Assembly: GCA_046582655.1 (NCBI GenBank)
Contig: JAYGDX010000073.1
Coordinates: 31,746-95,745, forward strand
DNA: 64,000 nt
Source: Candidatus Poribacteria bacterium
GTDB lineage: Bacteria; Poribacteria; WGA-4E; UBA9662
Reading direction: 5' to 3'
Shown: positions 7,415 through 46,718 of the stretch, piece after piece
Layout of the letters: every line of letters begins with the position of its first letter
Numbering within the stretch: position 1 is the stretch's first letter
Notes under the pieces: generated by a model
Databases searched by the model: none
What the model was told of the DNA's origin: nothing
The model's input: the letters and a program-made list of their open reading frames with translations, nothing else
Position numbers and translations under genes: made by a program

Positions 7415-7424
7415 GAGGAACGGT

Positions 7425-10181: not shown

Positions 10182-10521
10182 CTTTCAGAATAGGGTAAGA
10201 TTAGTCCAGTATAATTTATTATGTTTCCTTGTCTTAATGCAAGAAAACATGTTGGGAACTGATATGCTTATTTCAGTTGAGTTAATAGTAAGTTTGATGT
10301 GTGTATATTATTTCAGACAGGTTAGTTTTCATAGATATTGAGAGGGTGAACCCCATTTTCGGTCAATGAAAACATGGACCTGCTGGATAAAACAGCAATG
10401 TCGATAGTTAGGTGATTATATTCAAAATAATTAATACCTTTAGCGAAACATCTGCAATAGGTAGCTCGTTATGTATACAAGATATGAAATTTGATCTGAT
10501 AATTACATTGGTGTTGAGTTT

Positions 10522-10740
10522 ATGTGGCTTACATTAGAAGACGCGGCAGAAAAATTAGGCGTTAGTATTGATACTGTCCATGAAGTTCTTGGAACATCAA
10601 TAATACAAATACTGGAATCTCAAGTTGATGAGCTGAGGAACGAGTTAGAGCAGCTACAAAACACATTGCAGCAGAAAGAAACAATGCTATTGTATTTACG
10701 TGAACAACCCTTTGAACTTTGGACTGACAGACGTACATAA
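10522..10740 (+). CDS. small HTH (excisionase/MerR-like) plus coiled-coil protein
   Basis: LTLEDAAEKLGVSIDTVHE helix-turn-helix followed by a heptad-like ELRNELEQLQNTLQQKE. Isolated in a 1.5 kb AT-rich non-coding region. Confidence 0.3.
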   Translation: MWLTLEDAAEKLGVSIDTVHEVLGTSIIQILESQVDELRNELEQLQNTLQQKETMLLYLREQPFELWTDRRT

Positions 10741-11458
10741 AAACACTCGATTCGCCATATTATTCTTGCCATGATATTCCCCGTTTGATGAGAAGAAACA
10801 GCTTGCTGGCCTCTCTGTAGTACGATATTCTGAAATTCTGTCTTTAAACCGACTTAGTTTTTAAAGCAGTTTATCTAGAATGGGCCTGCTAATCTTTGCC
10901 CAGCCTTCCGCTAATTTCGAATTAAATGCACTCATTCTGAATACTCGTTAGCTGCAACCTAATTGTATATTGAGGTTGTAAATGATATTTGAAATACTGG
11001 ATATGAACTGTTCAAAGGAAAAAACATTCAGTATCTAGCCCGCATGTTCAGAGAAATAGGAAGTTCTGCCTATATTCTGCTATTTTACATGTTTGATTTT
11101 ATCTTATTTTTACTTAAATATGTGGATCATGATTAAATGAAACTTGATTCTTTTGTCATAATAACAGGGAGTTTTTGTGGATTTGAGGTGGAACTGAGAC
11201 AAAGGGGGTTGGTGGCGAGAACTGAAACATGGAAGGCCTAGCCCCGTACTCTTAGAGATTCCAGGAGATGTCGCGCTGGAGGGATTCCTAGACGATGCTT
11301 TCGATTATACTCCAGTGAAGGTCCGCAAGTCCAGCGTAGACGCTAGTGGTGTCTGAGAGTTGGTGACATCTCTGCTTGAGACTTCATGTCTTGTCATTAG
11401 TTCGGTGCGGATCTCATCTTCCATTTAGTGTACCATCAATTAATAAGGAGGACGGTCG

Positions 11459-11515
11459 ATGGCGCTACAGATGATAACCAAGACGGAGGAAAATGCCTCA
11501 TGCTACCTGTTGTGA
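11459..11515 (+). other. 18-codon ORF (MALQMITKTEENASCYLL) with a perfect Shine-Dalgarno (AAGGAGG, 7-nt spacer); candidate leader peptide or small protein
   Basis: AAGGAGG at 11445-11451. ATG at 11459. It lies immediately upstream of a promoter-like element and downstream of a GC-rich structured segment. Confidence 0.25.
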
Positions 11516-11517
11516 GG

Positions 11518-11549
11518 ATTTGCAGGTATACTGATCCATGTTAGTATAA
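11518..11549 (+). promoter_or_regulatory. sigma-70-like promoter (TTGCAG-N19-TATAAT) overlapping a conserved 13-mer AGGTATACTGATC
   Basis: -35-like TTGCAG at 11518-23 and -10 TATAAT at 11544-49. The 13-mer at 11524-36 recurs at 18434-46 upstream of the MFS gene. Confidence 0.35.
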
Positions 11550-11712
11550 TATAATTATAGTTTTCTGATAAGGGTGGTTTATTTATGCCGAAAATTCCCG
11601 TAGGAAAGTTAACAAAAATTTATCGGCTAATATCTTCTGCGTTTCAGTTCTATGGTCAGAACTTGCGTCTATTAATTTTTATTTGATTCATTGTTGATCT
11701 AGGAAGGACACT

Positions 11713-13182
11713 GTGTCTAAAATCGTCGTTGCCAATTGTTTTCAGGAAACCAACTCATTTCATCCTAATTCTACCACCTATGAGCATTTTAACGTCCATT
11801 TTGGTCAAGATTTATTCGAGGCTGATCGTCAGGATATTAGTGGCGCCTTAAATGTCTTTTCTCGACAAACTAATATAGAACTTGTACCTACCTATGGAGC
11901 GGGTATGGGGGCAGGTGGGACCATTACCCAAGCGTGCTTCGATCAAATTGCCGAAGAATGTCTTGAAGCTATAGAAAAACACAGTACCAATGCCGAAGCA
12001 CTTTATTTTTCCATGCATGGGGCAATGGCAGCAGAAGAGGAAAAGGATCCAGAAGGCTACCTCCTTGAGGAAACCCGAAAGATTCTGGGACCTAATGTGC
12101 CCATCGTGATTTCATTAGACATGCATGGCACCGTTACTCGTCGCATGTTACAAAACATCAACGGAGCTGCCATTCTACACACTTATCCTCATATCGATTG
12201 GTATCAGTTAGGAAAGCGCGCAGCTAGTATGTTGCTGCGTATTCTGGAGGGGGTGAAGCCTATTATAGCTAGCGTTTACACGCCGACCATGGTGCGTGGT
12301 GACGAACTGAAGACAGCCACCGGCGTCCACGGTACGCTCATACGACACTGCGAACACCTCGAAGAAAGGAACGACGTATTGGCTGCAGGTATTATGCTTG
12401 GCCATCCGCCTACCGATGTACCGGAACAGGGTTCCAGAATTGTTATTGTCACCGATGATAATAGAGAATTGGCTGAACAGGAGGCCTTGAAACTAGGAAC
12501 CGATTTTTGGGCCCTACGGGCACGTATGCAGTGCGTATTGTACAGGGTGGAAGATGCAATTAAAATAGCAAAAAAATCGGATGGGCCTGTTATCTTCTCC
12601 GATGCTGCTGATGCCACCAGTTCTGGAGCACCAGGTACCAGTAACGCTATTCTTAAAGGACTTTTGCAGAGTGATTATGCTGGACGGGTACTTTTCCCAA
12701 TTCGGGATGAGCCTGCTGTTGAGAAAGCGATGGAAGCAGGAATAGGCAGAACCATTACTGTCCCGCTTGGTGGGACCAAAGATCCTCGCTTTATTCCGCT
12801 AGAAGTAGAGGTCACGGTGGAAATGCTATCGACTGGCAAGTATTTCTCTCAAGGAAATGGTATGGGAAATGCTGGTCCTCTAGCTATACTAAGAACCAAT
12901 AATATCACCATCGTTGTCTCAACTCAACCTAGTGTTTTGTGCGATTACTCAATGTATCTCGGTCTGGGACAAGATCCGAAAAAATTCGATATAATTATCG
13001 TTAAATTGCCTCATACTCCGCATCATCTTTATGATGCTTGGGCTGTAAGGAACATGACTATCGATGTTCCAGGTGCTGCCAGTCCCAACATCAAGACATT
13101 GGGACACAAAATTGTCCCGCGCCCCATTTATCCGTTGGATGAAGATATGTCCTTTATACCTAGCGTAGAGGTGTTTTCATAG
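11713..13182 (+). CDS. M81 family metallopeptidase (MlrC/microcystinase C-like, DUF1485+MlrC_C); GTG start
   Basis: N-terminus VVANCFQETNSF and overall 489-aa architecture match the MlrC family. Confidence 0.55.
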   Translation: MSKIVVANCFQETNSFHPNSTTYEHFNVHFGQDLFEADRQDISGALNVFSRQTNIELVPTYGAGMGAGGTITQACFDQIAEECLEAIEKHSTNAEALYFSMHGAMAAEEEKDPEGYLLEETRKILGPNVPIVISLDMHGTVTRRMLQNINGAAILHTYPHIDWYQLGKRAASMLLRILEGVKPIIASVYTPTMVRGDELKTATGVHGTLIRHCEHLEERNDVLAAGIMLGHPPTDVPEQGSRIVIVTDDNRELAEQEALKLGTDFWALRARMQCVLYRVEDAIKIAKKSDGPVIFSDAADATSSGAPGTSNAILKGLLQSDYAGRVLFPIRDEPAVEKAMEAGIGRTITVPLGGTKDPRFIPLEVEVTVEMLSTGKYFSQGNGMGNAGPLAILRTNNITIVVSTQPSVLCDYSMYLGLGQDPKKFDIIIVKLPHTPHHLYDAWAVRNMTIDVPGAASPNIKTLGHKIVPRPIYPLDEDMSFIPSVEVFS

Positions 13183-13402
13183 ATACTATTCTATTGTACT
13201 CGCTTCGCTGAAAGTGTGTGATGGAGATTTTCAGATTGACTGGAACGGTTGACCCTAATTCTACTATACTTTTTTGGAATTATGGTTTTATTTGGGTTGG
13301 AGGTCACTTGGACTTAATGAGGAGTGGTTATAATGTCTCGGATTAATATAATTTTTTCCTCGACGCTTCATTTCTATAATCTTTAATAATGCTATATTTC
13401 AT

Positions 13403-14152
13403 TTGAGGGGGATGGTAATGAGTAGTAAAGAAGAACTCTTCGCTCATCTTGACAAACACGGTTACGTTGTACTGAAGGGGGTTTTGACAGTGAATCAGGT
13501 TGGCGCACTGAGGGAAAGGTCAATCGAGCTGATAAAAAAAGAGCGGGAGTTAGGAGCACAATTATACTTAGATAACAGATCGCAGCGCGTATGGAATTTA
13601 GTGAACAAAGGCAAAATCTTTGCGGACATGATACAGCATCCGTCGGTATTGGAGTTTCAAGAATATTTGTTGGGAAATAATTGTACTTTAAGCAGTTTTA
13701 CAGTCAATCTGATAGGACCGGGGTCTCCCGTTTCCGGGCTACACATTGATTATCCATTGAGTAATCTTCCAACACCACACCCATCCTTTGCTCTTTGTGC
13801 CAACAGCGTTTATCTGCTTGATGATTTCAGTTTGGAAAACGGCGCTACACGGCTTATTCCTGGAAGTCACAAGCGTGGCTATGGTCCTTCACCCGGTGAG
13901 ATGTATGATGATGTTATTCAAGTCACTGGTAAGAAAGGAGACATTATTATTGTTCATGGACATATATGGCACAGTAGTGGCGAAAATCACACTGATCGGG
14001 ATCGCGTTGCTTTACTAGGTTTCTTCTGCCGTTCTTTTATGAAGCCACAGCAAGATCATCTGAAGCTAATTGCAACAGATATTATTGAAGAGGCCTCCCC
14101 CACTTTAAAGCGGTTGCTCGGCATGGATTCACAGCCAAACCTAAATGATTAA
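13403..14152 (+). CDS. PhyH family Fe(II)/2OG dioxygenase
   Basis: LFAHLDKHGYVVLKGVLT N-terminus and HxD...H context (GLHIDYP, HGHIWHSS). Start could be 13418 or 13427. Confidence 0.7.
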   Translation: MRGMVMSSKEELFAHLDKHGYVVLKGVLTVNQVGALRERSIELIKKERELGAQLYLDNRSQRVWNLVNKGKIFADMIQHPSVLEFQEYLLGNNCTLSSFTVNLIGPGSPVSGLHIDYPLSNLPTPHPSFALCANSVYLLDDFSLENGATRLIPGSHKRGYGPSPGEMYDDVIQVTGKKGDIIIVHGHIWHSSGENHTDRDRVALLGFFCRSFMKPQQDHLKLIATDIIEEASPTLKRLLGMDSQPNLND

Positions 14153-14270
14153 ACTCAAGTAGGTTGTGGTGAGAGTCGTATGATAAATTGAGGTTACTTA
14201 ACTCCTTCTCCCTTCCTGATTCCTAATCAAACATGAATATAGGTAAAGGTTGATAACAAACTGCCATCTT

Positions 14271-15155
14271 TCAGTTTGTTCGGTGCATGACAACGCCTTT
14301 AGGGTTTTCGAGGGCATCCATCCATAGTCGACACCACTCAGTGTGGTCTGTTAGTACATTGTCGGAATTGCTTGAACTGCGAACAACAAACGCCGGATGT
14401 CCAGTACGGCCAGTGTGCTGACCGGTCGGTTGGTATCGTAGATCAATTGACCAACGGCATGACTCTGAAAGGTTGAGATTTCCACGGTGGGGCGTGAATC
14501 TATGCATTAGAATTACGTCACCTTTGTAACAGACCATTGGAAGTGGTTCAACATCTGGCACGAGGTCAGGAATGATATGCGTTCCGCCCTCTGGACAATG
14601 GTCAAGATACCCTTTGCTGATGATTCCAGGTAGAATTTCCATACATCCCATTTCAAGTGTCGCATCACCCAGTGGTAGCCAACAAGTGGTTATTTTGGAC
14701 TTTTCAGCTTCTGGCATCATTACTGCCGCATCCTGATGTAAAGGAGCTATGTGAGAAGAAGATTCAGCATCCTGATAATATTTGATTGGTGGTGTAGGAC
14801 GAAGATGTTGTATGGGATTGCAGGTGATTTCAGAACCAACCAGGGATTCTACGACGTCAAGTAGGTTTTTGTTGTGGAGAAATTCAAAGATTGCTGGGCC
14901 GCGGTAATGCATGATATCTAATCCGTGGGCGATCTCTGAAGATTGCTCGAAAATTAGCCCAAAGCACTTCTCAAACGGTTCATTTTCGTATAACTTCCGG
15001 ATTTTCCCTGCCACCTTCAATTCGTGTGCCCGACGATAAATGAAAGCTGATATCTCGTCAATTATTGGTTGCAGGTCTTCATCAGTCAAGGCATTCTTTA
15101 CAATCAGCACCCCTTGTGTATTGAACGTATCGATCTGTTTTTTTGTCAACTTCAT
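14271..15155 (-). CDS. PhyH family Fe(II)/2OG dioxygenase
   Basis: QIDTFNTQGVLIVKNALT N-terminus and HQDAA iron-binding context. 294 aa. Confidence 0.7.
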   Translation of the reverse strand: MKLTKKQIDTFNTQGVLIVKNALTDEDLQPIIDEISAFIYRRAHELKVAGKIRKLYENEPFEKCFGLIFEQSSEIAHGLDIMHYRGPAIFEFLHNKNLLDVVESLVGSEITCNPIQHLRPTPPIKYYQDAESSSHIAPLHQDAAVMMPEAEKSKITTCWLPLGDATLEMGCMEILPGIISKGYLDHCPEGGTHIIPDLVPDVEPLPMVCYKGDVILMHRFTPHRGNLNLSESCRWSIDLRYQPTGQHTGRTGHPAFVVRSSSNSDNVLTDHTEWCRLWMDALENPKGVVMHRTN

Positions 15156-15324
15156 GCCTGTTACCTCCAGTCAGGATTTGCATTTTCCTCTTTTATTCTA
15201 GCATATCCTATAGTTGACTCGATAGACTTATAATCCAAAATCAATAATTGAAAAAACAGTGATGATTTGATAACCTTGACCAGATGATTTAAAACCCGTG
15301 AGTTGTGTGAGATAGGATAGAATC

Positions 15325-16080
15325 ATGGTTTCGCTTAAGTTTAAAGCACGAATTCCTGTTTTTGATGCGAATATTCGCGTTGGCGATTTGCACAACGAGT
15401 TATCCCCCTGCAGAAATCGGAATCAACTGTTGACCGAAATGGATCTACATGGGGTTCAGCAAGCATTGGTTTACCATGTTCAGGCTGAAACCATTAGCCC
15501 TGTTGATGGTAATCGTTACCTAGAATCATGGCTTGATAATGACGGACGTACGTATCCACAGTGGTTGGTTATGCCCTCATCTGATTCCATCTCCCAGATT
15601 CAGACACTTTACGCCAAAGGTAAAGTTCAATCTGTTCGTTTGTATGATACTCAATCAGTAGGTTTGCCTCTGCGACCTTGGGCTTATGACGGACTCCTTT
15701 CTTGGCTTAGTGAAGTTCGTGTTCCGACCTTCATTTCTCTGCCGGATGCTAATTCTGATGAACTGGTAACAACGCTATCGGCCTATCCAGAATTAGTAGC
15801 GGTTTTAGTCGGAGCGCATTATCAACATGCTCTCTGGATACGACCGATTTTAACGGCTTTGCCTAATGCCTATCTGGAGTTGAGTCGTTACGAACCAATC
15901 GGTGAGATAGAAGCGTTGCGCGATGAGTTTGGGGCTAATCGGTTGATCTATGGTTCTTGGTATCCGCGTTATGCTATGGGACCGATGTTGTTTTACCTAC
16001 ACCATACCACCTTGACAGAGGCCGAATTGGCATTGGTTTGTGCTGGTAATCTAACCCGAATTTTAGAGGAGGTGTTATGA
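15325..16080 (+). CDS. amidohydrolase-2 (PF04909-like) paralogue lacking the N-terminal HxH metal ligands
   Basis: C-terminal GANRLIYGSWYP...CAGNLTRIL matches Amidohydro_2. The N-terminus has VFDANIRVGD in place of IDxHxH. 4-nt overlap with the next gene. Confidence 0.45.
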   Translation: MVSLKFKARIPVFDANIRVGDLHNELSPCRNRNQLLTEMDLHGVQQALVYHVQAETISPVDGNRYLESWLDNDGRTYPQWLVMPSSDSISQIQTLYAKGKVQSVRLYDTQSVGLPLRPWAYDGLLSWLSEVRVPTFISLPDANSDELVTTLSAYPELVAVLVGAHYQHALWIRPILTALPNAYLELSRYEPIGEIEALRDEFGANRLIYGSWYPRYAMGPMLFYLHHTTLTEAELALVCAGNLTRILEEVL

Positions 16081-16829
16081 TGATTGAAAGTAGTCGAGTC
16101 ATTGACTTTCACGGCCACGTTGGTCGCTGGGATATATATGGGATGATAGACAATCCAGATCTGATGCTGCAAGCCATGGACGCGGTGGGAATTGACAATG
16201 CCTGTCTATTTCATATTTTCCATCCTGATGGAGTTTCCAGTAATGATTTGACAGCACGCTTTGTCGCACAACATCCAGATCGTTTTGTTGGTTTTGCATA
16301 TGTTTCACCCCTTATGTCTTCTGGTTGTATAGACGAACTAGCGCGAGCAATTGACGAATTGCAATTTTCTGCTATTAAGCTCTATCCACCCTACACTCCT
16401 TGGCCGCTGAATAAACCGCAGTGGAATCCTATCTACGAATTCGCTGACGAGCGAGGATTGACCATCATTTTTCATACTGATAGTGGTCCTCAAAGTCAGC
16501 CCAAGTTTATAGCCGATATCGCACCTCGCTATCCAAACGCCAATTTTGTGGCAGGTCATTCGGGTAACATTGCCGAGCCACGGGGGCAAGCCATCGCAGC
16601 CGCGCGAGCCTATCCAAACGTATATTTGGAAACTTGTTCAACCTTTCGCACCCCTGGAGTGATTGAAGAATTGGTGAATGAAGCGGGTGCAGATCGTGTA
16701 TTGTTCGGTTCGGATATGCCTTTGATGGATCCACGTTCCCAGATTGGTAAGATTATCACTGCCCGTATTTCTGATGAAGCCAAGCAGAAAATTTTGGGCG
16801 GAAATGCCAGCCGTTTGTTAGGAATCTAA
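16077..16829 (+). CDS. amidohydrolase-2 family metal-dependent hydrolase (LigI/LigJ/ACMSD-like)
   Basis: IDFHGHVG, VLFGSDMPL and ILGGNASRLLG motifs. Confidence 0.7.
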   Translation: MMIESSRVIDFHGHVGRWDIYGMIDNPDLMLQAMDAVGIDNACLFHIFHPDGVSSNDLTARFVAQHPDRFVGFAYVSPLMSSGCIDELARAIDELQFSAIKLYPPYTPWPLNKPQWNPIYEFADERGLTIIFHTDSGPQSQPKFIADIAPRYPNANFVAGHSGNIAEPRGQAIAAARAYPNVYLETCSTFRTPGVIEELVNEAGADRVLFGSDMPLMDPRSQIGKIITARISDEAKQKILGGNASRLLGI

Positions 16830-16946
16830 ATTTCCTTAGTTTGTTTGGTTTTGTACGCATTCTAATTTATATCGTAGAAAAGAATTTATATTTAGCATGC
16901 CAGATTGGGCTTAAGGATCAAAGAGGTGATTGTAACGAGTACTCAC

Positions 16947-17633
16947 TTACACTTGGAACTTGAGTTGACTCGCCTTATCGTTTTGGATATTGGCACAATG
17001 CTCCTCAAAATTCAGCATCTCTATAAGGCTAACACCATTGGCCATTGCTTCCAGCAGACGATCTTCATTTCTCTGGATGTCTTCTGCCACTGGTATAAGA
17101 GCATCCAACTCCTCGATGGTTGCAACGACGATACCATCATCGTCACCGAACAGAATATCCCCGGGATTTACGATGATGCTGCCACATATGACCGGAATCT
17201 GGGTTTCAAAAAGCTGGTTTGTCGTGCCAGGCACACAACTTACTGACCGAGCGTAATAAGGAATTTCCATAGTTCGAACAGCTGCGGTGTCTCGACAGGG
17301 GCCATCGTTGATGATACCTGCTAGTCCCTTGCGTGCGGCTTCGGTTGGAAACAACTCACCAGTGAGTGCTTTGTGACTGTTCTGTGAGTCGATGACAATT
17401 ACTTCCCCTGGCATGGCATCGCGTAAGGCCTTAACCACGGTCAAAAAGTCATCATAACAAGTGACCGTGTGTGCGTAACCTACAAGCTTCAGCCCTATGC
17501 AGATCGGTCGTATTCCAGAGTCCATAACGCGCAGATTTAAGTTTAGTACTTTATCCGCATCGCAAATGCATGCTGTATCGAGTTTCAACAAGCGCTGCTT
17601 AATATCATCAAAATTTATCATGTCCTTCTCCAA
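16947..17633 (-). CDS. RraA family protein (4-hydroxy-4-methyl-2-oxoglutarate / 4-carboxy-4-hydroxy-2-oxoadipate aldolase-like)
   Basis: DTACICDA motif and RraA-family length/architecture. Confidence 0.7.
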   Translation of the reverse strand: MEKDMINFDDIKQRLLKLDTACICDADKVLNLNLRVMDSGIRPICIGLKLVGYAHTVTCYDDFLTVVKALRDAMPGEVIVIDSQNSHKALTGELFPTEAARKGLAGIINDGPCRDTAAVRTMEIPYYARSVSCVPGTTNQLFETQIPVICGSIIVNPGDILFGDDDGIVVATIEELDALIPVAEDIQRNEDRLLEAMANGVSLIEMLNFEEHCANIQNDKASQLKFQV

Positions 17634-18433
17634 TTGCAGATTTCAGAATAAGAGTTCGGATTTCGTCAATTTCATGTTTGCAGACGTCCTTCATCCTGAA
17701 ATCTCTTTATTGTATGTATATGCAAGAGCCACCATTTGGTCGTCGTTAGTAAAATCGGATTTTCGCTTTGGGTTAGATTTCTACAAATGTGCGTGATTGA
17801 ACAAAATCACTGGCGATTGTTACAGATATCACTGTTTCATTTGTTGCGTTTCTTCAATAGCAAGGGGTTAGATGAACGTAAAAGGAGGATAATTGTCTTC
17901 AATATTTCACCTACGATAACACGACCAGCCGAAGGGATCAATGGATATATAATATTCGTCATTAACCTCAATGTACAATTGCTATTTTGTTTGTTCTAAT
18001 ATGTTTCTTCTGATAAGATGATGAACCTGAAATGAGGAAGTTTCCACGATTAACAATGATTTATCTTCCAGATCTTTGTAGGCCAATAATCCAAGTTTGG
18101 CTAAAGCCAGACGTCCAATTACAGGAAACTTGTATTAGTAGCCAATCGGTCCAGTCCTATTGGGACTTTTCCTGTCTGTTTTCTGTGAGACCTCGCCCAA
18201 TTTGCGTTGGATTCAATCTCATGGTGCTGGTATGAACAATTTCCTGTTCCCTGGAATCATTGACCAAGATTTTACGGTGACCAATATGGCAGGCCGTCAG
18301 CCAGGAAGCTAGGTACGTCTGAGCATTATTGCTTTCTTTCGTTCGTACACTTTCGACATCGTGTCAATGGCCGGAAATTTTGGCAAATGCTTGCTGTCGA
18401 ACTGACGTGAGGAACGTTTGGAATCGTCGGTCT

Positions 18434-18473
18434 AGGTATACTGATCTAGCTTGTGCAACCTAATTTTCTTCTA
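18434..18473 (+). promoter_or_regulatory. Two conserved motifs (AGGTATACTGATC and TGCAACCTAATT) shared with the region upstream of the M81 peptidase gene
   Basis: Exact 13-mer at 18434-46 matches 11524-36. Exact 12-mer at 18462-73 matches 10947-58. Located 20-60 nt upstream of the MFS start codon. Confidence 0.3.
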
Positions 18474-18492
18474 GTTACGACTAAGGAAGGTT

Positions 18493-19692
18493 ATGCAAAG
18501 ACCGCCTAAAGTTAATCCGAAAAAGTATTTATGGTGGTGTTGTATCCTTCATGTTATCAATGATGGGTATATTGCCAGTTTGTCTCTCTTACTGCCCTTC
18601 ATAGCTAAGGATTTGGATCTTACCTATACCGAATCTGGTTTGCTTAAAACTGCTATCCACGGTGCTATAAGTGTTGCTCAAGTTCCTGCCGGATTCTTAG
18701 CCGAGCGCTTCGGGGACATTGTGATGCTTGGTCTAGGAGGCTTATGGTTCAGCTTTAGCTATATGATTTTGTTCTTGGCATTTAGTTATTCTTTTACGTT
18801 GATCTTGATACTTTCGGCTGGCGTTGGTGGTGGTGTTTATCATCCTGTAGGCACTGCTCTAGTATCCAATGCCTACCTGGATGGGGAGTCTGGTTCAGCT
18901 ATCAGCACATTGAATTTCTTCGGTGATGTTGGTAAAGCGATCTTCCCCTTTCTAGCCGGTGTGTTGGTTGTCAGGTTCGGATGGCGAGTAAATTGCGTGG
19001 TGTTAGGAATGGTTGGATTGGGAACCTCTATTTTATATCTGTTGTTCTTTCGAAGGGAAATCCGCTTAAAAAGACTTTCGTTAGAGGTCTCAGGCGACCA
19101 GTTTGATAAAACAAGTAGGAGGTGGGGGATAGCACAACCGGGCCAATTCACCCTCTATTCTGTCCTCGGGCTTTTGGACAATGGTATTCGATCTGCCGTT
19201 ACGACATTTTTAGGATTTTTGCTCATTGAAAAAAGAGGAATTCAGGAGAGTTCTGTGGGTGGAATGATGTCGTTAGTTTTTTTGGGTGGGGCGTTGGGAA
19301 AACTCTTATGTGGTCTGTCAATCCAGAAATTTGGCGTAAAGAAAATTATTCTGGTAACAGAGATACTGATGGTCCTCGGTTGTTTTGTCCTACCCATGAT
19401 CCCATCAAGATGGATTCTTTTACTTTTTTTGCCGCTATTTGGGTTTATGTTGAATGGTACATCTTCTGTCATCTATGTTGGTGTTGCACCAACGCTTAGG
19501 TCTGAGTTTCGAAGCCGTGGATACGCGTTACACTATACTCTTAGCTTTCTTTCCTCGGCGATTACGCCTTATCTTTTTGGATTGGTTGGCGATGCATACG
19601 GTCTGAATACTATTTTCCATGCGACAGCCATAGTCATGTTACTGGGTTTGCCGTTAGTGTTTTTTTTTGAAAGAAAGAGAGAATTTCGATAA
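18493..19692 (+). CDS. MFS transporter
   Basis: 12 predicted TM helices. MFS_1-like pattern. 399 aa. Confidence 0.75.
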   Translation: MQRPPKVNPKKYLWWCCILHVINDGYIASLSLLLPFIAKDLDLTYTESGLLKTAIHGAISVAQVPAGFLAERFGDIVMLGLGGLWFSFSYMILFLAFSYSFTLILILSAGVGGGVYHPVGTALVSNAYLDGESGSAISTLNFFGDVGKAIFPFLAGVLVVRFGWRVNCVVLGMVGLGTSILYLLFFRREIRLKRLSLEVSGDQFDKTSRRWGIAQPGQFTLYSVLGLLDNGIRSAVTTFLGFLLIEKRGIQESSVGGMMSLVFLGGALGKLLCGLSIQKFGVKKIILVTEILMVLGCFVLPMIPSRWILLLFLPLFGFMLNGTSSVIYVGVAPTLRSEFRSRGYALHYTLSFLSSAITPYLFGLVGDAYGLNTIFHATAIVMLLGLPLVFFFERKREFR

Positions 19693-20070
19693 ATAATCCC
19701 GTTGAAAAACGCTTTTTTCTTTGGAGCCCCGCTTCTAGTTGGAGTTGAATACGATCGTGCTCCTACCCAAAACCTGACTGCTGGGAAACCGACTTCGATT
19801 GGTTGTATAACGCTTCCAAGTTGTCTGAAGTGCTTCATACTGGAACTCGAAGGAACCCAAGCTTGGTGTCTATGGTGAGCTTTTAACCTCGAGTCACGGA
19901 GGGCAAATGTGATGTGACAAGCTAAATGGACAAAAAAATTGGCATCGGAACGCATCTTATTGGAAATCATACCCGATCGAGATTTTCGAAATGAAGATCT
20001 ACTAATGGACGCGATCCAAGTGGTCCGTGTTGAGTTGTGTCCATTTAGTAATAATAGGAGGTTGATCAAT

Positions 20071-21213
20071 ATGGATTCAAGTGTTTATGATTTGATAATT
20101 AATGCTGGGCGTGTTGTCTGTCCGTCCACCGGGCTTGATGGCCCGGGCGCAGTAGCGGTGAAGGGTGATCGAATTGTCTCTGTTGGCAATCGCTTCGAGG
20201 GGACTGCACGACAAACACTAGATTTTCCGAATGATTTGTTGCTTCCGGGTTTGGTGGATATGCACGCTCATCCGGCACGAGAGGGATCTAAGTATGGAAT
20301 TGATCCCGACATCCATATGCTACCGCGGGGAACAACGACTGTGCTTTCTCAGGGGGATGCAGGTGCTAGTAATTGGCCTCGCTACCGTGAATCTGTTGTT
20401 GAAAAGGCTTGTACATGCGTTCGTCTTGCCCTCAATCTGTCCATACGAGGTGAATCCACGGCAGGCGGCTGTTTTGAGAATTTATCAGACATAGATGTAG
20501 ATGCCTGTGTTGCTGCGGTTGAAGATGGAGGCGACGCGATCTGGGGCATTGCTGTCAACATCAGCACAGTCACCAGCGGTGACACAGATCCACACGAGAT
20601 CATGAGACGCGCACTGAGTGCTGCCGATCGGATAGGTTGTCCGCTACTCTTCGGTAGCCGAAGCCAGCCTGATTTCCCTTTGGCACACCAACTGGCGTGG
20701 CTCCGAACTGGCGATGTCGTTACCTACTGTTTCCGCAATGATACCGACCGAATTGTGAATGATAAGTGCGTTATAGATGAAGTCTGGAAAGCCCGTGAGA
20801 AAGGCGTTTTGTTCGATGTTGGACATGGTATGAATTCATTTCATTTTGATGTGGCGGAAACAGCAATTGCCTCAGGATTTCTACCCGACACTATCTCAAC
20901 AGACCTGTACCTTCGCCATGTGGGAAGTCACCCTCAACACGATTTGCCTCGTACGCTTTCTAAGTTGATTGCTGCGGGAATGTCTGAAGCAGATGCCCTG
21001 TCGCGAGTGACTATACGCCCAGCAGAGGTGCTGGGAATGTCTGGAGAGGTTGGCACATTGGCACCCGGCACCTCCGCTGATCTCTCTGTACTACGTTGGA
21101 ATTCAGAGACATTGCCCTTATGTGATGTCACGGGTGCTCCTCGTCCTGGAGGTTGCTGGGAACCAATCCTGACGGTGCGAGCTGGTCAGCTCATTGATAC
21201 TGTAGTCTCATAG
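20071..21213 (+). CDS. metal-dependent amidohydrolase (Amidohydro_1/3, dihydroorotase/D-aminoacylase-like)
   Basis: PGLVDMHAH motif. AGGAGG RBS before ATG 20071. The ORF-track start at 19939 is upstream read-through. Confidence 0.6.
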   Translation: MDSSVYDLIINAGRVVCPSTGLDGPGAVAVKGDRIVSVGNRFEGTARQTLDFPNDLLLPGLVDMHAHPAREGSKYGIDPDIHMLPRGTTTVLSQGDAGASNWPRYRESVVEKACTCVRLALNLSIRGESTAGGCFENLSDIDVDACVAAVEDGGDAIWGIAVNISTVTSGDTDPHEIMRRALSAADRIGCPLLFGSRSQPDFPLAHQLAWLRTGDVVTYCFRNDTDRIVNDKCVIDEVWKAREKGVLFDVGHGMNSFHFDVAETAIASGFLPDTISTDLYLRHVGSHPQHDLPRTLSKLIAAGMSEADALSRVTIRPAEVLGMSGEVGTLAPGTSADLSVLRWNSETLPLCDVTGAPRPGGCWEPILTVRAGQLIDTVVS

Positions 21214-21340
21214 TGCGCGATGTTGTTCATATCGCTTTTAGATGGTTTAAACGCTTGGCTGACTTTATCAATTGCTACCAGTGCAACATTGCCTCAGCAG
21301 TCCATGGAATATGCCACCTCTGAATAACAGAACGATAATG

Positions 21341-22179
21341 TTACACCAAACCGACAAGTTGTTTCATCTGGTCATCTATCATCTTTAGATGATCAGAGTT
21401 GAAACGTTCATGAATGGTCTGGCGAGCGTTTAACTCTTTTTCCTGATTCCCTTTTTGAGTGAAATTATATAAACAAACAAGTCGGGGTTGTTGCCGCAGA
21501 TTATCCGAAGCACTGTGTATTACCTGCCCATCATAAAAAAAAACACCTCCGGCTTTGAGGGCGATTTCCTCTGGATTCCAATCGAGTCCATCAAGATTGT
21601 CCTTGGCAGTATATGCATTGTTCTTTTCCTTTTCTGCTCGGAATTGTGGATCGGCTGCCGCTTTTTCGATAAGGTAGTGACTGCCTGGGACTGCCGTCAT
21701 GGCCCCGCCCGAAGGTTCAATATCAGCAAAAGTTAGCCAGGCGTTAGCGAAACTTCCTTCTCTCTCAAGAAAAGGCGTGTTAGAGAACCCATCAGTATGA
21801 CTCCGCCAGTTCCCATTTTTTAAACATCCACACACTTTTCCGAAAAAAGTAACAACGGGTATAGGTTCGGCTGAGAGCCGAAATGAACCATCAATCATGT
21901 GTGAAATCACCTCCAGCAATTTTGGATGTGTGGCAAATCGAGCGATTTCAGGAATACTGTGCTGAGGGGTCTTGAGTTGCCGTCGTGTTCCCCAGATATG
22001 GGCATAAGACTCTGGGGATTCGGGTCGAATTTTGTCAAGCAGAATGGCAGCTCCTTCTTTTGCTTCTCCTGTGGTAAGAACATTCTCAATAGTTGCGTAC
22101 CCTTGGGCAATAAATTGCTGGCGAAAGTCTTTAATATTTTGTTTTGGCAGAGGACTTCTCCTGAGAGTATTTTTATCAT
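21341..22179 (-). pseudogene. PhyH family dioxygenase interrupted by a 1-nt frameshift near the N-terminus (ORFs 21341..21919 and 21907..22179)
   Basis: Minus-strand frame shows a clean PhyH N-terminus NIKDFRQQFIAQGYATIENVL...HPKLLEVISHMIDG continuous with the 192-aa ORF but with no start codon. The ATG at 22179 lies in the adjacent frame. The frames meet in an A-rich tract (caaaacaaaatattaaag). Confidence 0.5.
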
Positions 22180-22188
22180 ATTAACGGA

Positions 22189-23172
22189 CTATGGAACTTG
22201 AGCACCCTGTGTTTCCACATAAAGAGCGTAAAGAGACTGGCTTCCGGCCATGAAAACTCGGTTCCTTTTAACACCACCGAAACATAAGTTAGCACAAACC
22301 TCAGGAAGATGAATCTTGCCAATTAGATCACCATCGGGTGCAAAAATGTGGACACCGTCATATCCTTCACCTACCCAGCCTGCGCTTGACCAGAGATTCC
22401 CATCAACATCGCAGCGGATACCATCTGCTAATCCCGGTGACATGTCGCAAAAAAAACGCCCGCTTTTCAGTCGGGCATTGTCAGCCACGTCATAGACGCG
22501 AATGTGACGTGGATGATCTGGTTTATGTGTGGCTCCAGTATCGACAATATATAACTTGGAATAGTCAGGCGAGAAGCAGAGGCCGTTGGGTTTTTCAAGC
22601 TCGTCTGCAACCACCGTGGCTTCACCCGTATCTGGGTTAAGTCGGTAAACGTTGGTTGGTAATTCAAAGTCAGCTCTCTCTCCTTCATAGTGAAGGAGAA
22701 TCCCATAGCCAGGATCAGTGAACCAAATATGTCCATCCGGGTGAACCACCACATCGTTGGGGGCGTTTAATGGTTTACCTTCGAAACTCTCCATTAACAC
22801 GGTGATGCGACCATCATATTCCGTTCGAGTCACGCGACGTGTCAGATGTTCACAGGTAACTAACCTACCTTGCTTATCACGGGTATTGCCGTTACTGTTA
22901 TTGGCAGGTTGCCGAAAGACGGTGACCTGACCGGTTTCCTCTATCCAGCGCATTATCCTGTTGTTGGGAATATCACTCCAGATCAGGCAACGTGCATCCC
23001 CAAACCAGACTGGGCCTTCCGACCATCGAGCGCCAGTCCATAATCGTTCCACCACAGCGTTACCAATTAGATACTTGGCAAACCGTTGATCAACTATCTC
23101 AATGGCTGGATCGGGATACCTGGTGATCCCTTGATCCCATTTTCTATTGACACTTGAAATGTTACTCATCAT
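22189..23172 (-). CDS. SMP-30/gluconolactonase/LRE-like six-bladed beta-propeller protein (lactonase)
   Basis: SGL-family length and motifs (RFNDG-like, repeated D-x-x-G-N-L-W blades). Confidence 0.65.
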   Translation of the reverse strand: MMSNISSVNRKWDQGITRYPDPAIEIVDQRFAKYLIGNAVVERLWTGARWSEGPVWFGDARCLIWSDIPNNRIMRWIEETGQVTVFRQPANNSNGNTRDKQGRLVTCEHLTRRVTRTEYDGRITVLMESFEGKPLNAPNDVVVHPDGHIWFTDPGYGILLHYEGERADFELPTNVYRLNPDTGEATVVADELEKPNGLCFSPDYSKLYIVDTGATHKPDHPRHIRVYDVADNARLKSGRFFCDMSPGLADGIRCDVDGNLWSSAGWVGEGYDGVHIFAPDGDLIGKIHLPEVCANLCFGGVKRNRVFMAGSQSLYALYVETQGAQVP

Positions 23173-25106: not shown

Positions 25107-26072
25107 TTATAACTGAACAGCTTTACCAGTTCGGGCAGATTCATAGATCGCCATATTCAGTTCAATAGATCTCTTTCCTTCATACCCATCCACAGCAGCT
25201 TGCTTACCATTATTGATAACCTGAATTGCATCTTCAATCGTGTTCTTTGGATAATGGGGCAATTCAATTTCTGGTTCGTCTTCTTTGAAATCCCAAATGT
25301 TTGGTCCAAGTCCCACAACCCCTTTTGTGCCATGTATCTGAATCATTGAAACATTATTGCTTGGAAAAGTAGTTGTCGTGTATACAGTTCCAATCGCACC
25401 ATTCTTGAATTGCAAGATAGCAGTGGCCAAGTCTTCTGTTTCACAATTTTCATGAGAGTACACACCGAAGTGGGCACCAATCACCTTATCAACGTCTCCC
25501 ATAAACCATAGCATCAAGTCAACGTAGTGCACACCCTGATTCATAATGGATCCGCCACCGTCAAATTCCCATGTACCATGCCAGCCAACATAATAGCTGT
25601 CAGCACGGAACCATTTCATGCGTAACTCACAGTGGATTGGCTTGCCAATTACCTCGTTTTGGACAGCGTGTTGTATTCGTCGGTTATGTTCACCGTAACG
25701 TTCCTGAAAATCAACCAGCAGCTTAACCTCATTTTTCTCGCAAGCATCGATTAAAGCATCACAATTCTCAATACTTACATCCATTGGTTTAGTGGTGATA
25801 ACATGTGTTCCACGATTGGCCGCTTCTATTCCGATCTTGGCATGTAATCCACTTGGCAACATGATCATTCCAACATCAATATCGTCCCGATCAAACATCT
25901 CATTTGCTTCTGTGTAAGTATCACATCCAAATTTCTCGGCTGCATTATTACATCTGTCTTCATCGAGATCGGCCACCGCAACCAGTTTTGCCCCGTCTGT
26001 ATTAGCAATTTGATTTGCTCGGTTCATTCCCATTCCCAGACCAACAACACCAAAACCTAATTCTATGCTCAT
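25107..26072 (-). CDS. Gfo/Idh/MocA family oxidoreductase
   Basis: GFGVVGLGMG Rossmann motif and TKPMD (EKP-like) motif. Confidence 0.75.
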   Translation of the reverse strand: MSIELGFGVVGLGMGMNRANQIANTDGAKLVAVADLDEDRCNNAAEKFGCDTYTEANEMFDRDDIDVGMIMLPSGLHAKIGIEAANRGTHVITTKPMDVSIENCDALIDACEKNEVKLLVDFQERYGEHNRRIQHAVQNEVIGKPIHCELRMKWFRADSYYVGWHGTWEFDGGGSIMNQGVHYVDLMLWFMGDVDKVIGAHFGVYSHENCETEDLATAILQFKNGAIGTVYTTTTFPSNNVSMIQIHGTKGVVGLGPNIWDFKEDEPEIELPHYPKNTIEDAIQVINNGKQAAVDGYEGKRSIELNMAIYESARTGKAVQL

Positions 26073-39816: not shown

Positions 39817-39915
39817 TTCGATCTATTACTCCTAATTGGTCTAATACCAGTTTTTGACTTGACGATTTTATGTAGTGTCAAGTATATTCTTGAAATTATG
39901 CTGGTGAAAAAAGAA

Positions 39916-46645: not shown

Positions 46646-46718
46646 ACGCCTGTAGCTCAGCGGATAGAGCAGGGGCTTCCTAAGCCTCGTGTCGGGGGTT
46701 CAAATCCTCTCAGGCGTA
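46646..46718 (+). tRNA. tRNA-Arg (anticodon CCU)
   Basis: Manual cloverleaf: acceptor ACGCCUG/CAGGCGU. D-arm GCUC-AGCGGAUA-GAGC. Anticodon stem GGGGC/GCCUC with loop UUCCUAA. T-loop GUUCAAAUC. Discriminator A. No encoded CCA. Confidence 0.8.

Follow-up and report, generated by a model that had tools for sequence, protein, structure and literature searches.

A conserved two-barrel amidohydrolase-2 pair in a catabolic gene neighbourhood of Candidatus Poribacteria

Gene content and genomic setting

Do the enzyme genes at positions 11713-23172 of a 64,000-nt window from Candidatus Poribacteria (i.e., the whole stretch of DNA analysed) serve one pathway, and which of them form a functional unit? 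A preliminary description had interpreted this region as an accessory catabolic island with a LigI/LigJ/LigK-like trio and several PhyH oxygenases. Its gene list is confirmed: based on ORF calls, Pfam and NCBIfam, the M81 peptidase, three PhyH genes, a fourth PhyH outside the region, two overlapping amidohydrolase-2 genes, the RraA-family gene, the MFS transporter, a further amidohydrolase and the SMP-30 gene are all present at or near the coordinates given for them. The respective features, together with a nearby binding protein, are as follows.

5000-5818, plus strand: PhyH no. 1 (Pfam PhyH 2e-16), outside the region, between MazG and 6-phosphogluconate dehydrogenase genes
8424-10181, minus strand: family-5 (peptide/nickel/opine type) periplasmic solute-binding protein (Pfam SBP_bac_5 3.9e-47)
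11713-13182, plus strand: M81-family metallopeptidase, MlrC-like fold (Pfam DUF1485 2.4e-73, MlrC_C 7.7e-33)
13403-14152, plus strand: PhyH no. 2, Fe(II)/2-oxoglutarate oxygenase (Pfam PhyH 2.9e-26)
14271-15155, minus strand: PhyH no. 3 (Pfam PhyH 1.6e-12)
15325-16080, plus strand: subunit A, amidohydrolase-2, TIM barrel without canonical metal ligands (Pfam Amidohydro_2 1.9e-09)
16077-16829, plus strand: subunit B, amidohydrolase-2, metal-binding barrel (Pfam Amidohydro_2 1.8e-40)
16947-17633, minus strand: RraA-fold protein, aldolase/decarboxylase type (Pfam RraA-like 6e-37)
18493-19692, plus strand: MFS transporter (Pfam MFS_1 4.8e-41), conserved in NP41
19939-21213, plus strand: cog3964-type amidohydrolase/deacetylase (PRK09237-type; NCBIfam PRK09237 2.8e-78)
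21341-22150, minus strand: PhyH no. 4 (Pfam PhyH 6.5e-12 on the 269-aa product)
22189-23172, minus strand: SMP-30/gluconolactonase/LRE-family protein, six-bladed propeller lactonase type (Pfam SGL 3.5e-52), conserved in NP41

Clustering of catabolic-type enzyme genes, with no ring-cleavage dioxygenase among them, is supported, and an amide-, peptide- or lactone-containing substrate, as proposed earlier, is still plausible. The label of an accessory island is not. GC content is 0.42-0.48 both within the region and outside, the tRNA search found no tRNA near it, and no mobility gene is among the ORFs scanned in or adjoining it. Furthermore, window positions 5849-28413 are collinear with the Ca. 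Poribacteria MAG NP41 (blastn, 81-87% nucleotide identity), housekeeping flanks included. A mobile island was rejected on these grounds. The layout is also kept in several independent marine contigs. We consider the region to be a stable chromosomal neighbourhood, made up of around six small transcription units, in a pelagic/marine Poribacteria-like genome; this forms part of our main reading given below and shares its probability.

Gene content besides A and B varies even between close relatives. The cog3964 gene is missing from the otherwise collinear NP41, where the blastn alignment to the respective locus (L016) is gapped at window positions 19714-21342. Conversely, close relatives (87-91%) carry a DgaE-family ammonia-lyase gene, placed between two PhyH genes, that is absent from the window. 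GFO/IDH/MocA dehydrogenase genes are found on the flanks of the region.

Peptidase, transport and oxygenase genes

The M81 gene was rejected as a microcystinase proper (NCBIfam MlrC, 122.7 bits vs. a cut-off of 999). The MFS transporter has sub-threshold NCBIfam matches only, the best one to an aromatic acid/H+ symporter family (67.6 vs. 418 bits). For the family-5 binding protein, which carries a hydrophobic, signal-like segment at its N-terminus and is syntenic in relatives L010, L011 and L016, all NikA/DppA/Opp-type NCBIfam matches are weak, and no permease genes lie beside its gene. The gene previously called DHOase-like is indeed an amidohydrolase, its type being corrected to cog3964/EF0837 (PRK09237, 263 vs. 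371 bits; EF_0837 family, 9.6e-52; PDB matches 8je0 'Amidase' at 1e-43, 2ics (EF0837) and 2ogj (Atu3266)). It probably starts at ATG 20071, since its NCBIfam match does not start until residue 50.

For PhyH no. 2, a start at ATG 13415 is probable given that its relatives have 245 aa. Its translation shows an H-I-D ... H motif; among proteins of solved structure, SptF (5e-15) and KanJ (2e-11) match it best, with PHYHD1 at only 3.5e-4. PhyH no. 3 (H-Q-D ... H motif; best solved relative PtlH, 3e-6) is divergent from the A/B pair with a spacer of 169 nt. It shares a similarity cluster of 17 loci with sponge Poribacteria PhyH genes located 2-3 genes upstream of the pair, the similarity being distant (about 1e-10). 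PhyH no. 4 follows the lactonase gene in the same orientation after 38 nt (best solved relative SnoN, 1.2e-8). Its family was correctly described before, whereas its boundary at 22179 was not, because the ATG there is in another frame. The frame of the gene is open over 21341-22180, the first ATG, GTG or TTG in it being an internal TTG at 21919. In NP41, the orthologue is intact and begins with ATG (MSKQNIKDY); at this point the window has LPKQNIKDF, with CTG at 22150-22148.

In Poribacteria, PhyH genes are reported to account for over 1.9% of all genes (PMC3909097). Compared to this rate, the enrichment is real but modest, i.e., 3 of 11 genes in the region (P about 1e-3) and 4 of about 55 in the window (P about 0.02), where no further PhyH was found in the 24-64 kb part. 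Given how common the family is, some of these genes may lie together by chance.

The amidohydrolase-2 pair

The genes of A and B overlap by 4 nt (ATGA), the two products are paralogous (hhalign probability 96%), and neither has an NCBIfam family. They are thus a translationally coupled paralogous pair and not, as had been suggested, a LigI plus a LigJ. The pair is conserved at 62-78% identity over at least six phyla. Homologues of A are 61-74% identical across phyla; those of B (69-78%) are found in Poribacteria, Chloroflexota, Latescibacterota, Gemmatimonadota, Zixibacteria, Cellvibrionaceae and a Nitrososphaerales archaeon. In practically all loci examined, A and B lie side by side: simple ORF calling finds A preceding B in 74 of 81 loci, the remaining ones being masked by antisense ORFs, and the two genes mostly overlap by 4 or 8 nt. 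Fused proteins of about 510-550 aa also occur, both in Caldilineaceae loci and among the 150 best library representatives (more than 25). They combine an N-terminal F-D-x-N barrel with a C-terminal D-x-H-x-H barrel, one of them in reverse order.

The two barrels differ in their metal ligands. B retains the complete ACMSD-type set (HxH, His, His, Asp), its invariant residues being H12, H14, K101, H133, H161, E185 and D213. In A, the ligands are replaced under equally strong constraint, with an invariant D14-A15-N16 in place of HxH, R105 for Lys and W212 for the strand-8 Asp. The AF2 model of A (pLDDT 87.8) has 3irs as its best fold match in Foldseek, with LigI at rank 25. For B (pLDDT 88.2), the fold matches are a gamma-resorcylate decarboxylase, 3nur, LigW and ACMSD, with LigJ at rank 11.

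From these sequence features we infer that A and B form a heterodimer in which A is inactive and the single metal site belongs to B. There, a carboxylate substrate would be decarboxylated, hydrated or hydrolysed in a non-redox step. By analogy, A may contribute structure and possibly residues in trans. The closest precedent is the heteromeric AibH1H2, which belongs to the same Pfam family and has a structural subunit (PMC12141560), AibH1 playing this part for AibH2; in ACMSD, the neighbouring subunit's arginines are essential according to the title of entry 4ifk. Alternatively, the invariant D14, N16, H51, R105 and E185 of A could constitute a metal-free active site. This highly conserved, uncharacterised two-barrel enzyme, with one barrel metal-binding and one without metal ligands, is the notable part of the region.

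The RraA-like gene and the Lig pathway

The RraA-like protein probably starts at ATG 17621, which results in 224 aa. As had been presumed, it is not RraA sensu stricto (72.6 bits vs. a cut-off of 136): its best PDB match is the HMG/CHA aldolase 3noj (8.5e-21), and G92, R114, D115 and E190, invariant in 121 homologues, correspond to 3noj G101, R123, D124 and E199, i.e., to the catalytic and metal-binding residues of that aldolase (PMC5065237). An assignment as LigK does not hold either, given 84 bits for LigK/PcmE vs. a cut-off of 304.5, and the pocket residues N71, H75, K147 and R195 are not conserved. The best NCBIfam match is PRK06201 (117 vs. 231 bits). The gene is convergent with the A/B pair and not co-transcribed with it, adjoins it in only 2 of 81 loci (the window lineage), and its orthologues (69-75% identical) are found in unrelated gene contexts.

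This bears on the pathway model of the preliminary description, where A and B act as LigI-like lactonase and LigJ/GalB-like hydratase and the RraA-like protein as LigK/GalC-like aldolase in a lower pathway of the pyrone/oxaloadipate type that is supplied by PhyH oxygenases rather than by an extradiol dioxygenase. What fits are the Pfam families (PF04909 for LigI/LigJ, PF03737 for LigK), the aldolase residues and the presence of LigJ among the matches of B (2gwg, 5e-11; 6dwv/6dxq, about 6e-07). However, 2gwg ranks under 3nur, 3irs, LigW, 3cjp and a gamma-resorcylate decarboxylase, and 6dwv/6dxq under ACMSD, such that LigJ is no nearer to B than ACMSD/LigW-type decarboxylases; LigJ also exceeds B in length by about 90 residues. 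None of the sequence searches returned LigI (4D8L), which is seen only in the Foldseek result for A, at 14% identity, and A lacks both HxH and the strand-8 Asp. Two subunits of one unit, fused elsewhere, are not two pathway steps, and scanning ORFs in the region and on its flanks, together with large ORFs elsewhere in the window, revealed no ligAB/ligC-type gene. The individual LigI, LigJ and LigK assignments and their linkage as a set thus mostly fail. Measured by the family placement and synteny that the preliminary description itself had named, the model is largely refuted, and we regard it as highly improbable.

Gene neighbours of the pair in other genomes

For 78 loci, we counted the gene families around the pair (SBP_bac_5 within 5 genes). 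Aminotran_3 and DegT (PseC/LegC-like) genes are each found in 29 loci, PhyH in 23, M14-like peptidases and SBP_bac_5 each in 21, and a DHDPS-family lyase in 20, in 17 of them immediately upstream of A. Lower counts are observed for BNR_2 (14), GFO/IDH/MocA (12), AKR (12), heparinase II/III (8), PIG-L (5) and M81 (4). The M81 genes of loci L017 and L072, both from Chloroflexota, directly follow the pair and are about 31% identical to that of the window. Since the neighbour families vary widely between phyla (sugar-type vs. peptide-type), the pair may serve different pathways.

Possible function of the region

Our main reading, to which we assign a probability of roughly 0.5 as a whole, is that several small operons degrade an imported N-containing carboxylate, peptide-like or amino-sugar-acid-like, with the two-barrel enzyme as conserved core. 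The family-5 binding protein and the MFS transporter would provide uptake, the M81 peptidase and the cog3964 amidohydrolase would cleave amides or esters, and the SMP-30 enzyme would open a lactone. Hydroxylation or oxidative dealkylation might be due to the PhyH oxygenases, and the RraA-fold protein, as a metal-dependent lyase, may cleave or decarboxylate the resulting 2-oxo acid. Against this reading stand the alternating orientation of the units, which may thus not be co-regulated, as well as the lack of a regulator gene in the region, the variable content besides A/B and the lineage-specific linkage of the RraA-like gene.

A more specific route would lead from a sugar or amino sugar to a lactone, its opening by SMP-30, deacylation (cog3964; PIG-L in other lineages) and deamination (the DgaE-like enzyme of close relatives) to a 2-keto-3-deoxy acid, which is cleaved or dehydrated/decarboxylated by RraA-like or DHDPS-type enzymes while A/B and PhyH act on side groups. 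The lactonase and cog3964 genes, the DgaE-family gene of the relatives, the GFO/IDH/MocA genes on the flanks and, around the pair elsewhere, the DegT, DHDPS, BNR_2, GFO/IDH/MocA, AKR, heparinase II/III and PIG-L genes are in accordance with it. Both the RraA and DHDPS families include 2-keto-3-deoxy-glucarate dehydratase/decarboxylases, namely FlDet (PMC8563752) and KdgD (NCBIfam match). However, the RraA-like protein is just 30% identical to FlDet (over 152 aa), the window itself has no DgaE-like, DHDPS, BNR_2 or DegT gene, no sugar kinase and no sugar-type transporter, the M81 peptidase and family-5 binding protein suggest peptides, and every family match is under its equivalog cut-off. We thus consider this route unlikely. 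Also unlikely, though slightly less so, is that the genes share no pathway, i.e., that they are unrelated catabolic singletons brought together by PhyH- and hydrolase-crowded Poribacteria genomes, with A/B as sole functional unit. The alternating units without a regulator, the high poribacterial PhyH rate, the scattered RraA-like orthologues, the cog3964 and DgaE-like genes present or absent by turns and the low M81 identity argue for this. On the other hand, the layout is preserved in NP41 and the marine contigs, three PhyH among 11 genes are unlikely at the background rate, and PhyH, lyase, peptidase and binding-protein genes recur by the pair in other phyla.

Gene content and organization of the region

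Based on the ORF listing and on Pfam/NCBIfam scans, every gene family that the preliminary description had named for positions 11713-23172 is present. Here, A and B denote the two amidohydrolase-2 (Pfam PF04909) genes, i.e., the pair.

Genes of the region and its vicinity (window coordinates, strand, family)
5000-5818, plus strand, further PhyH gene outside the region
11713-13182, plus strand, M81 peptidase
13403-14152, plus strand, PhyH
14271-15155, minus strand, PhyH
15325-16080, plus strand, Amidohydro_2 gene A
16077-16829, plus strand, Amidohydro_2 gene B (4-nt overlap with A)
16947-17633, minus strand, RraA-like (PF03737)
18493-19692, plus strand, MFS transporter
19939-21213, plus strand, PRK09237/EF_0837-type amidohydrolase
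21341-22150, minus strand, PhyH
22189-23172, minus strand, SMP-30/gluconolactonase

The genes form about six transcription units whose orientation alternates across the region: M81 with PhyH (plus), PhyH (minus), A with B (plus), RraA-like (minus), MFS with the PRK09237/EF_0837-type gene (plus), and lactonase with PhyH (minus). The gene list as such is ordinary for Poribacteria. Promoter and terminator scans were uninformative (38 promoter-like sites vs. 29 expected; 4 terminator-like sites vs. 11 expected), and Rfam reported neither riboswitches nor other RNA elements in the spacers at 10.2-11.7 kb and 17.6-18.5 kb.

Both Pfam M81 domains of the M81 protein score well above threshold, which makes it a member of this family; its 122.7 bits against the NCBIfam MlrC model (cut-off 999) indicate that it is not the microcystinase MlrC itself. 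The gene that had been called DHOase-like does encode an amidohydrolase, but its group is cog3964. The protein (19939/20071-21213) matches the PDB entries 8je0, 2ics and 2ogj at 1e-35 to 1e-43 as well as the PRK09237/EF_0837 models, the latter below their equivalog cut-offs. Its start is probably at 20071. Enzymes of the cog3964 group are reportedly active on acetyl-(R)-mandelate-type esters. Atu3266 and EF0837 belong to this group (Ornelas et al. 2013, cited in PMC12524618).

The region does not behave as the accessory island it had been taken for. GC content is 0.42-0.48 inside and outside alike, and a compositional island was rejected on this ground. No tRNA borders the region; the sole tRNA of the window is at 46646, and Rfam shows nothing else. 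Furthermore, window positions 5849-28413 are collinear with contig PBXZ01000100.1 of the Candidatus Poribacteria MAG NP41 (L016) at 81-87% nucleotide identity, flanks included. The flanks carry housekeeping genes, i.e., MurJ, MazG, 6-phosphogluconate dehydrogenase, Dus, a GidA/TrmFO-like protein, PolX and riboflavin synthesis genes. Hence, a pelagic genome of Poribacteria type is the most likely origin of the window.

Gene content differs slightly among close relatives. The cog3964 gene (window 19714-21342) is missing in NP41, where about 250 bp are found instead (L016:13711-13959). Three marine contigs with 87-91% protein identity carry an extra 525-aa gene between two PhyH genes (L010:6329-7906, L011:6329-7906, L001:5020-6597), which encodes a PLP enzyme of the DgaE family (D-glucosaminate-6-phosphate ammonia-lyase-like). 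Only about 80 bp (14187-14268) are found at its place in the window.

Conservation and architecture of the A/B pair

Conservation of the pair was assessed for 81 loci (80 GTDB species genomes and the window). By simple ORF calling, A precedes B in 74/81 loci with an overlap of mostly 4 or 8 nt; in most of the remaining loci, the pair is masked by longer antisense ORFs of high-GC genomes. B is 69-78% identical in Poribacteria, Chloroflexota/Caldilineaceae, Latescibacterota, Gemmatimonadota, Zixibacteria, a Cellvibrionaceae MAG and a Nitrososphaerales archaeon (P0168; 74%), with 78% observed for a freshwater Chloroflexota MAG (L017). Homologues of A are 61-74% identical. For both subunits, the identity across phyla (62-78%) equals that within Poribacteria (window 15325-16829 vs. 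L016-L095), which suggests horizontal exchange or extreme constraint. Most carriers of the pair are sponge-associated MAGs.

An hhalign probability of 96% at 22% identity marks A and B as paralogues, and for both the AlphaFold models are confident (pLDDT 88). Among 25 diverse B sequences, H12-x-H14, K101, H133, H161, E185 and D213 are invariant, such that B shows the ACMSD-type ligand set, i.e., HxH on strand 1, His on strands 5 and 6, and Asp on strand 8. A carries the invariant D14-A15-N16 where B has HxH, R105 at the position of the Lys, and W212 at that of the strand-8 Asp. Thus, as for the genes of a heteromeric PF04909 enzyme, two paralogues are adjacent and one of them lacks the catalytic ligand set.

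Using a profile of A, we searched 1.84 billion representatives and obtained 46, 650 and 1251 clusters at E-values of 1e-30, 1e-10 and 1e-3, respectively. More than 25 of the best 150 matches are proteins of 498-554 aa with two matched stretches. We examined eight such fused proteins of about 500-550 aa (P0382, P0389, P0392, P0408, P0413, P0421, P0455, P0484), 7/8 of which have an N-terminal F-D-x-N (one F-D-A-A) followed by a C-terminal D-x-H-x-H; in P0392, the barrel order is reversed. A paralogue of about 510 aa, whose N-terminal barrel is devoid of HxH and whose C-terminal barrel has every ligand of the set, is also found in Caldilineaceae/Chloroflexota (L067:6357-7892, L050:10777-12306 and ~28 other loci), and in Caldilineaceae it is encoded two genes upstream of the split A/B pair. 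Such fusions of A-like and B-like barrels count as Rosetta-stone evidence for joint action of the two barrel types. Along with the translational coupling of A and B, they indirectly support a physical A-B complex, and we infer that the two proteins would form a heterodimer.

No NCBIfam model is matched by A or B. The two-barrel enzyme is widespread and without a curated family and, as far as the literature consulted shows, undescribed.

Relation to known amidohydrolase-2 enzymes

LigI has a strand-1 HxH and a strand-8 Asp in its active site. A has neither (D-A-N, W212); B has both, but this feature is generic to the superfamily. Sequence and profile searches with A, B or the B profile gave no match to LigI (PDB 4D8L), and Foldseek places LigI (4d8l) at rank 25 for A (14% identity) and outside the top 50 for B. 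The top fold match of A is the uncharacterised 3irs. The B profile matches 3nur (4.3e-15), 3irs (9.5e-14), LigW (3.3e-13) and LigJ (2gwg, 5.3e-11; 6dwv, 6.2e-07), and the structural neighbours of B are gamma-resorcylate decarboxylase, 3nur, LigW and ACMSD, with LigJ at rank 11. B, which is also shorter than LigJ (250 aa vs. ~340 aa), is no closer to it than to other PF04909 enzymes. The earlier reading of the two genes as LigI plus LigJ thus gives way to one conserved paralogous unit.

With the clade of ACMSD, gamma-resorcylate decarboxylase, LigW, LigJ and LigY, B shares the fold (Foldseek TM ~0.75-0.81 normalised to B, E 1e-17 to 1e-13) and the HxH, His, His, Asp ligand set, but it has about 250 aa instead of 320-350 and only 16-24% identity. 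To our knowledge, no member of this clade pairs with a ligand-less paralogue. ACMSD is an obligate dimer that uses arginines of the neighbouring subunit (title of PDB 4ifk); because its active site needs these arginines, it may serve as a mechanistic analogy for A/B.

Amidohydrolase-related dinuclear oxygenases (ARO) are marked by D-x-H on strand 1 and D-x-P-H-x-D/E near the C-terminus (PMC13154177). B shows neither motif (H12-G-H14; D213-M-P-L-M-D218 with invariant L216) and was rejected as an ARO; A has D-A-N and no C-terminal motif of this type.

The closest architectural precedent is the heteromeric PF04909 enzyme AibH1H2, the 2-aminoisobutyrate hydroxylase of Rhodococcus (PMC12141560, PMC13154177), which combines a catalytic with a structural subunit (PMC12141560). 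The likeness covers adjacent paralogous subunits of the amidohydrolase-2 fold, one with the catalytic metal centre and the other mainly structural, as well as a catabolic context, where the substrate of AibH1H2 is a small nitrogen-containing acid. However, AibH2 is a dinuclear oxygenase with D-x-H and D-x-P-H-x-D/E, whereas B has H-x-H and D-M-P-L-M-D, i.e., Leu for His. Likewise, AibH1 binds a structural metal according to the review (PMC12141560, PMC13154177), whereas A lacks the ligands. The listed PDB matches of A, B and the B profile do not include any AibH entry. Judging from these motifs, A/B is built like AibH1H2 but would be part of the non-redox branch.

The RraA-like protein

The top solved relative of the RraA-like protein (16947-17633) is the HMG/CHA aldolase 3noj (8.5e-21), and its top NCBIfam match is PRK06201, a "hypothetical protein" subfamily (117 bits vs. 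cut-off 231). An identity with LigK/GalC, as had been proposed, is contradicted by the LigK/PcmE equivalog models TIGR02798 / NF006731 (84.1 bits vs. 304.5; 94.4 vs. 179). The P. putida HMG/CHA aldolase has the catalytic Arg-123, the metal-binding Asp-124 and Glu-199, and Gly-101, while its pocket and phosphate site are formed by Asn-71, His-75, Lys-147 and Arg-195 (PMC5065237). R114, D115 and G92 of the RraA-like protein align with R123, D124 and G101, and its invariant E190 is one position off the column of E199, i.e., the Arg/Asp/Glu/Gly catalytic core is kept. In contrast, N71, H75, K147 and R195 are replaced by D62, V67, T138 and D185. RraA sensu stricto has ~160 aa and no C-terminal extension; the protein studied here has 224-228 aa with a conserved C-terminal helix region and scores low with the respective models (NF006875, 72.6 vs. 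136; TIGR02998, 31.6 vs. 241). By these scores, it is neither RraA proper nor LigK. Given its conserved catalytic residues and the sub-threshold scores, a metal-dependent lyase or decarboxylase acting on 2-oxo acids, from a subfamily not yet characterised, is a plausible identity. FlDet, an RraA-family 2-keto-3-deoxy-glucarate dehydratase/decarboxylase whose orthologues are 63-80% identical (PMC8563752), was rejected as an orthologue, given 30% identity over 152 aa (47 bits; FlDet sequence from the supplement of PMC8563752).

The exact-sequence look-up of the RraA-like ORF returned no match, because the ORF as listed begins too early, at a TTG that precedes the true ATG. More than 300 homologues at 58-88% identity make up the family, and their context is not conserved; e.g., the orthologues with 75% and 69% identity adjoin unrelated genes. 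An RraA-like gene is near A/B in 2/81 loci only, namely those of the window and NP41. Its orientation in the window, convergent with A-B, rules out co-transcription with them.

PhyH oxygenases

All four PhyH (PF05721) genes of the window are within 5-22 kb and score above the Pfam gathering score of 22 bits. According to Kamke et al. 2014 (PMC3909097), no Pfam family is more abundant in Poribacteria than PhyH, which accounts for more than 1.9% of genes. Relative to a background of 1.9%, 3/11 genes of the region correspond to P ~1e-3 and 4/~55 genes of the window to P ~0.02, i.e., PhyH is genuinely, though only modestly, enriched. A Poribacteria-type genome with several PhyH genes that diverge from each other is in line with the known expansion (PMC3909097); what differs here is that three occur among 11 genes and adjoin a conserved amidohydrolase pair.

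The three in-region proteins are mutually divergent, and H-I-D, H-Q-D and H-T-D motifs plus a distal His are readable in their translations. Their closest solved relatives are tailoring enzymes of secondary metabolism, namely SptF and KanJ (13403-14152), PtlH (14271-15155) and SnoN (21341-22150). They are unlike PhnY-type or PHYHD1-type enzymes, whose functions are assigned (PMC12709175). PHYHD1, which demethylates 2'-O-methyl nucleosides (PMC12709175), was rejected as a model: two of the three proteins match its structure (2opw) at no better than 3.5e-4 and 1e-4, and the remaining one does not match it. PhnY-type and ectoine-hydroxylase assignments were dismissed as well, as NCBIfam gave only weak sub-threshold matches.

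The third in-region gene, located on the strand of the lactonase gene and 38 nt downstream of it, had been delimited at 22179. The ATG at that position is in another frame; the PhyH frame is open over 21341-22180 and contains no ATG, GTG or TTG before an internal TTG at 21919. Where the NP41 orthologue starts with ATG (MSKQNIKDY), the window has CTG at 22150-22148 on the minus strand (LPKQNIKDF), and the 269-aa product is still a Pfam PhyH match. Open frame and orthologue alignment show that the gene is intact except for this ATG-to-CTG change, so that a frameshift or pseudogene was rejected. Either the rare start is used or translation was recently lost.

Neighbours of the pair and their interpretation

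To describe the genomic context of A/B, we clustered all ORFs found in the 81 loci and annotated cluster representatives.

Families within five genes of the pair, among the 78 loci with the pair located (counts are not independent of each other, as many loci belong to related species of sponge symbionts)
Aminotran_3, 29/78
DegT (PseC/LegC-like), 29/78
Fused two-barrel paralogue, 28/78
PhyH, 23/78
339-aa Amidohydro_2, 23/78
M14-like, 21/78
SBP_bac_5, 21/78
DHDPS-family, 20/78 (17 immediately upstream of A)
BNR_2, 14/78
EutA/arylmalonate-decarboxylase-like, 12/78
AKR, 12/78
GFO/IDH/MocA, 12/78
CoA-transferase III, 11/78
Heparinase II/III, 8/78
PIG-L, 5/78
M81, 4/78

The most constant direct neighbour of the pair is the DHDPS-family lyase; in the window's lineage, an RraA-fold lyase is nearby instead, which could be a non-orthologous replacement. 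Overall, two themes recur among the neighbours. One is of peptide/amino-acid type (binding protein, peptidases, aminotransferases), the other of amino-sugar/sugar-acid type (DegT, BNR_2, PIG-L, dehydrogenases, heparinase, and the DgaE-like lyase in the window's relatives).

We read the region, with a probability of roughly 0.5, as a set of lineage-stable small catabolic operons around a heteromeric A/B core, which together would act on a nitrogen-containing carboxylate. The core would have a single non-redox metal site, located in B, and would be helped by uptake proteins, amide/ester hydrolases, the lactonase, PhyH oxygenases and the RraA-fold 2-oxo-acid lyase; both the reaction type and the order of steps are, at this point, our conjecture. 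A route for sugar acids or amino-sugar acids, to which the second neighbour theme would belong, is considered unlikely. It is also rather doubtful that no pathway is shared beyond A/B: the alternating units and the scattered RraA-like gene would fit such an arrangement, and the collinearity with NP41 fits lineage-stable operons.

The Lig-like lower pathway proposed earlier is highly improbable. The region does contain the PF04909 and PF03737 families of the LigI-LigJ-LigK route, but LigI similarity is absent, LigJ is not preferred and the LigK equivalog threshold is missed; moreover, the genes are not co-transcribed, their linkage is not conserved, and upstream ring-cleavage genes are absent among the ORFs scanned, as had already been remarked for an extradiol dioxygenase. 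Membership in LigI, LigJ or LigK is not found for any of the three proteins, and co-occurrence of PF04909 and PF03737 should therefore not be annotated as a Lig-type lower pathway.

The interest of the region now lies in the two-barrel enzyme A/B. Large sets of PhyH and 'amidohydrolase family' genes are typical of Poribacteria and of further lineages from sponges or the sea. A/B is recognisable by sequence motifs alone (one barrel with D-x-N, R and W, the other with HxH/H/H/D), unusually conserved across phyla without a curated family, and recurrent beside transport, peptidase, aminotransferase and lyase genes, which makes it a tractable entry point to the diet of these organisms. With A/B, moreover, the 'enzyme plus pseudo-enzyme paralogue' design, represented in this fold by AibH1H2, would reach into the non-redox branch of the superfamily. 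More tentatively, A/B might be an undescribed non-redox amidohydrolase-2 class, composed of a ligand-less D-x-N barrel and a catalytic HxH barrel in split or fused form, that performs a key step, along with PhyH and 2-oxo-acid lyases, on an abundant, unrecognised nitrogen-containing compound of marine or host origin. Given the 62-78% identity across phyla, such a class would have been exchanged horizontally among sponge-associated/marine bacteria and archaea.

Further observations

A quite different but conserved context of the pair is seen in Latescibacterota, Gemmatimonadota and unclassified MAGs (L066, L075-L078, L080, L083, L087, L089, L091, L093-L095). There, M14-like, nucleoside hydrolase, SDR, CoA-transferase III, bicupin and aldo-keto reductase genes are found upstream, and GDSL hydrolase, GFO/IDH/MocA, amino-acid permease and TPP enzyme genes downstream.

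In the window, the gene of a family-5 solute-binding protein (8424-10181, minus strand) has no adjoining ABC permease or ATPase genes. The adjacent 1.5 kb (10181-11713) are free of long ORFs and hold a conserved 72-aa ORF (10522-10740); the by-eye impression of a small DNA-binding protein was dropped, as this ORF has no Pfam match. A HAD-hydrolase ORF (7284-8327) overlaps the 3' end of the 6-phosphogluconate dehydrogenase gene (5951-7414) by ~130 nt; its Pfam match starts only at residue 160, such that the real start is probably further downstream. A gene for SelA (selenocysteine synthase) at 39859-41340 implies selenoprotein synthesis in this organism. The window also contains three GFO/IDH/MocA oxidoreductase genes (1063-2112, 25107-26072, 58571-59596) and two sigma-54 response regulators (31333-32766, 51557-52936).
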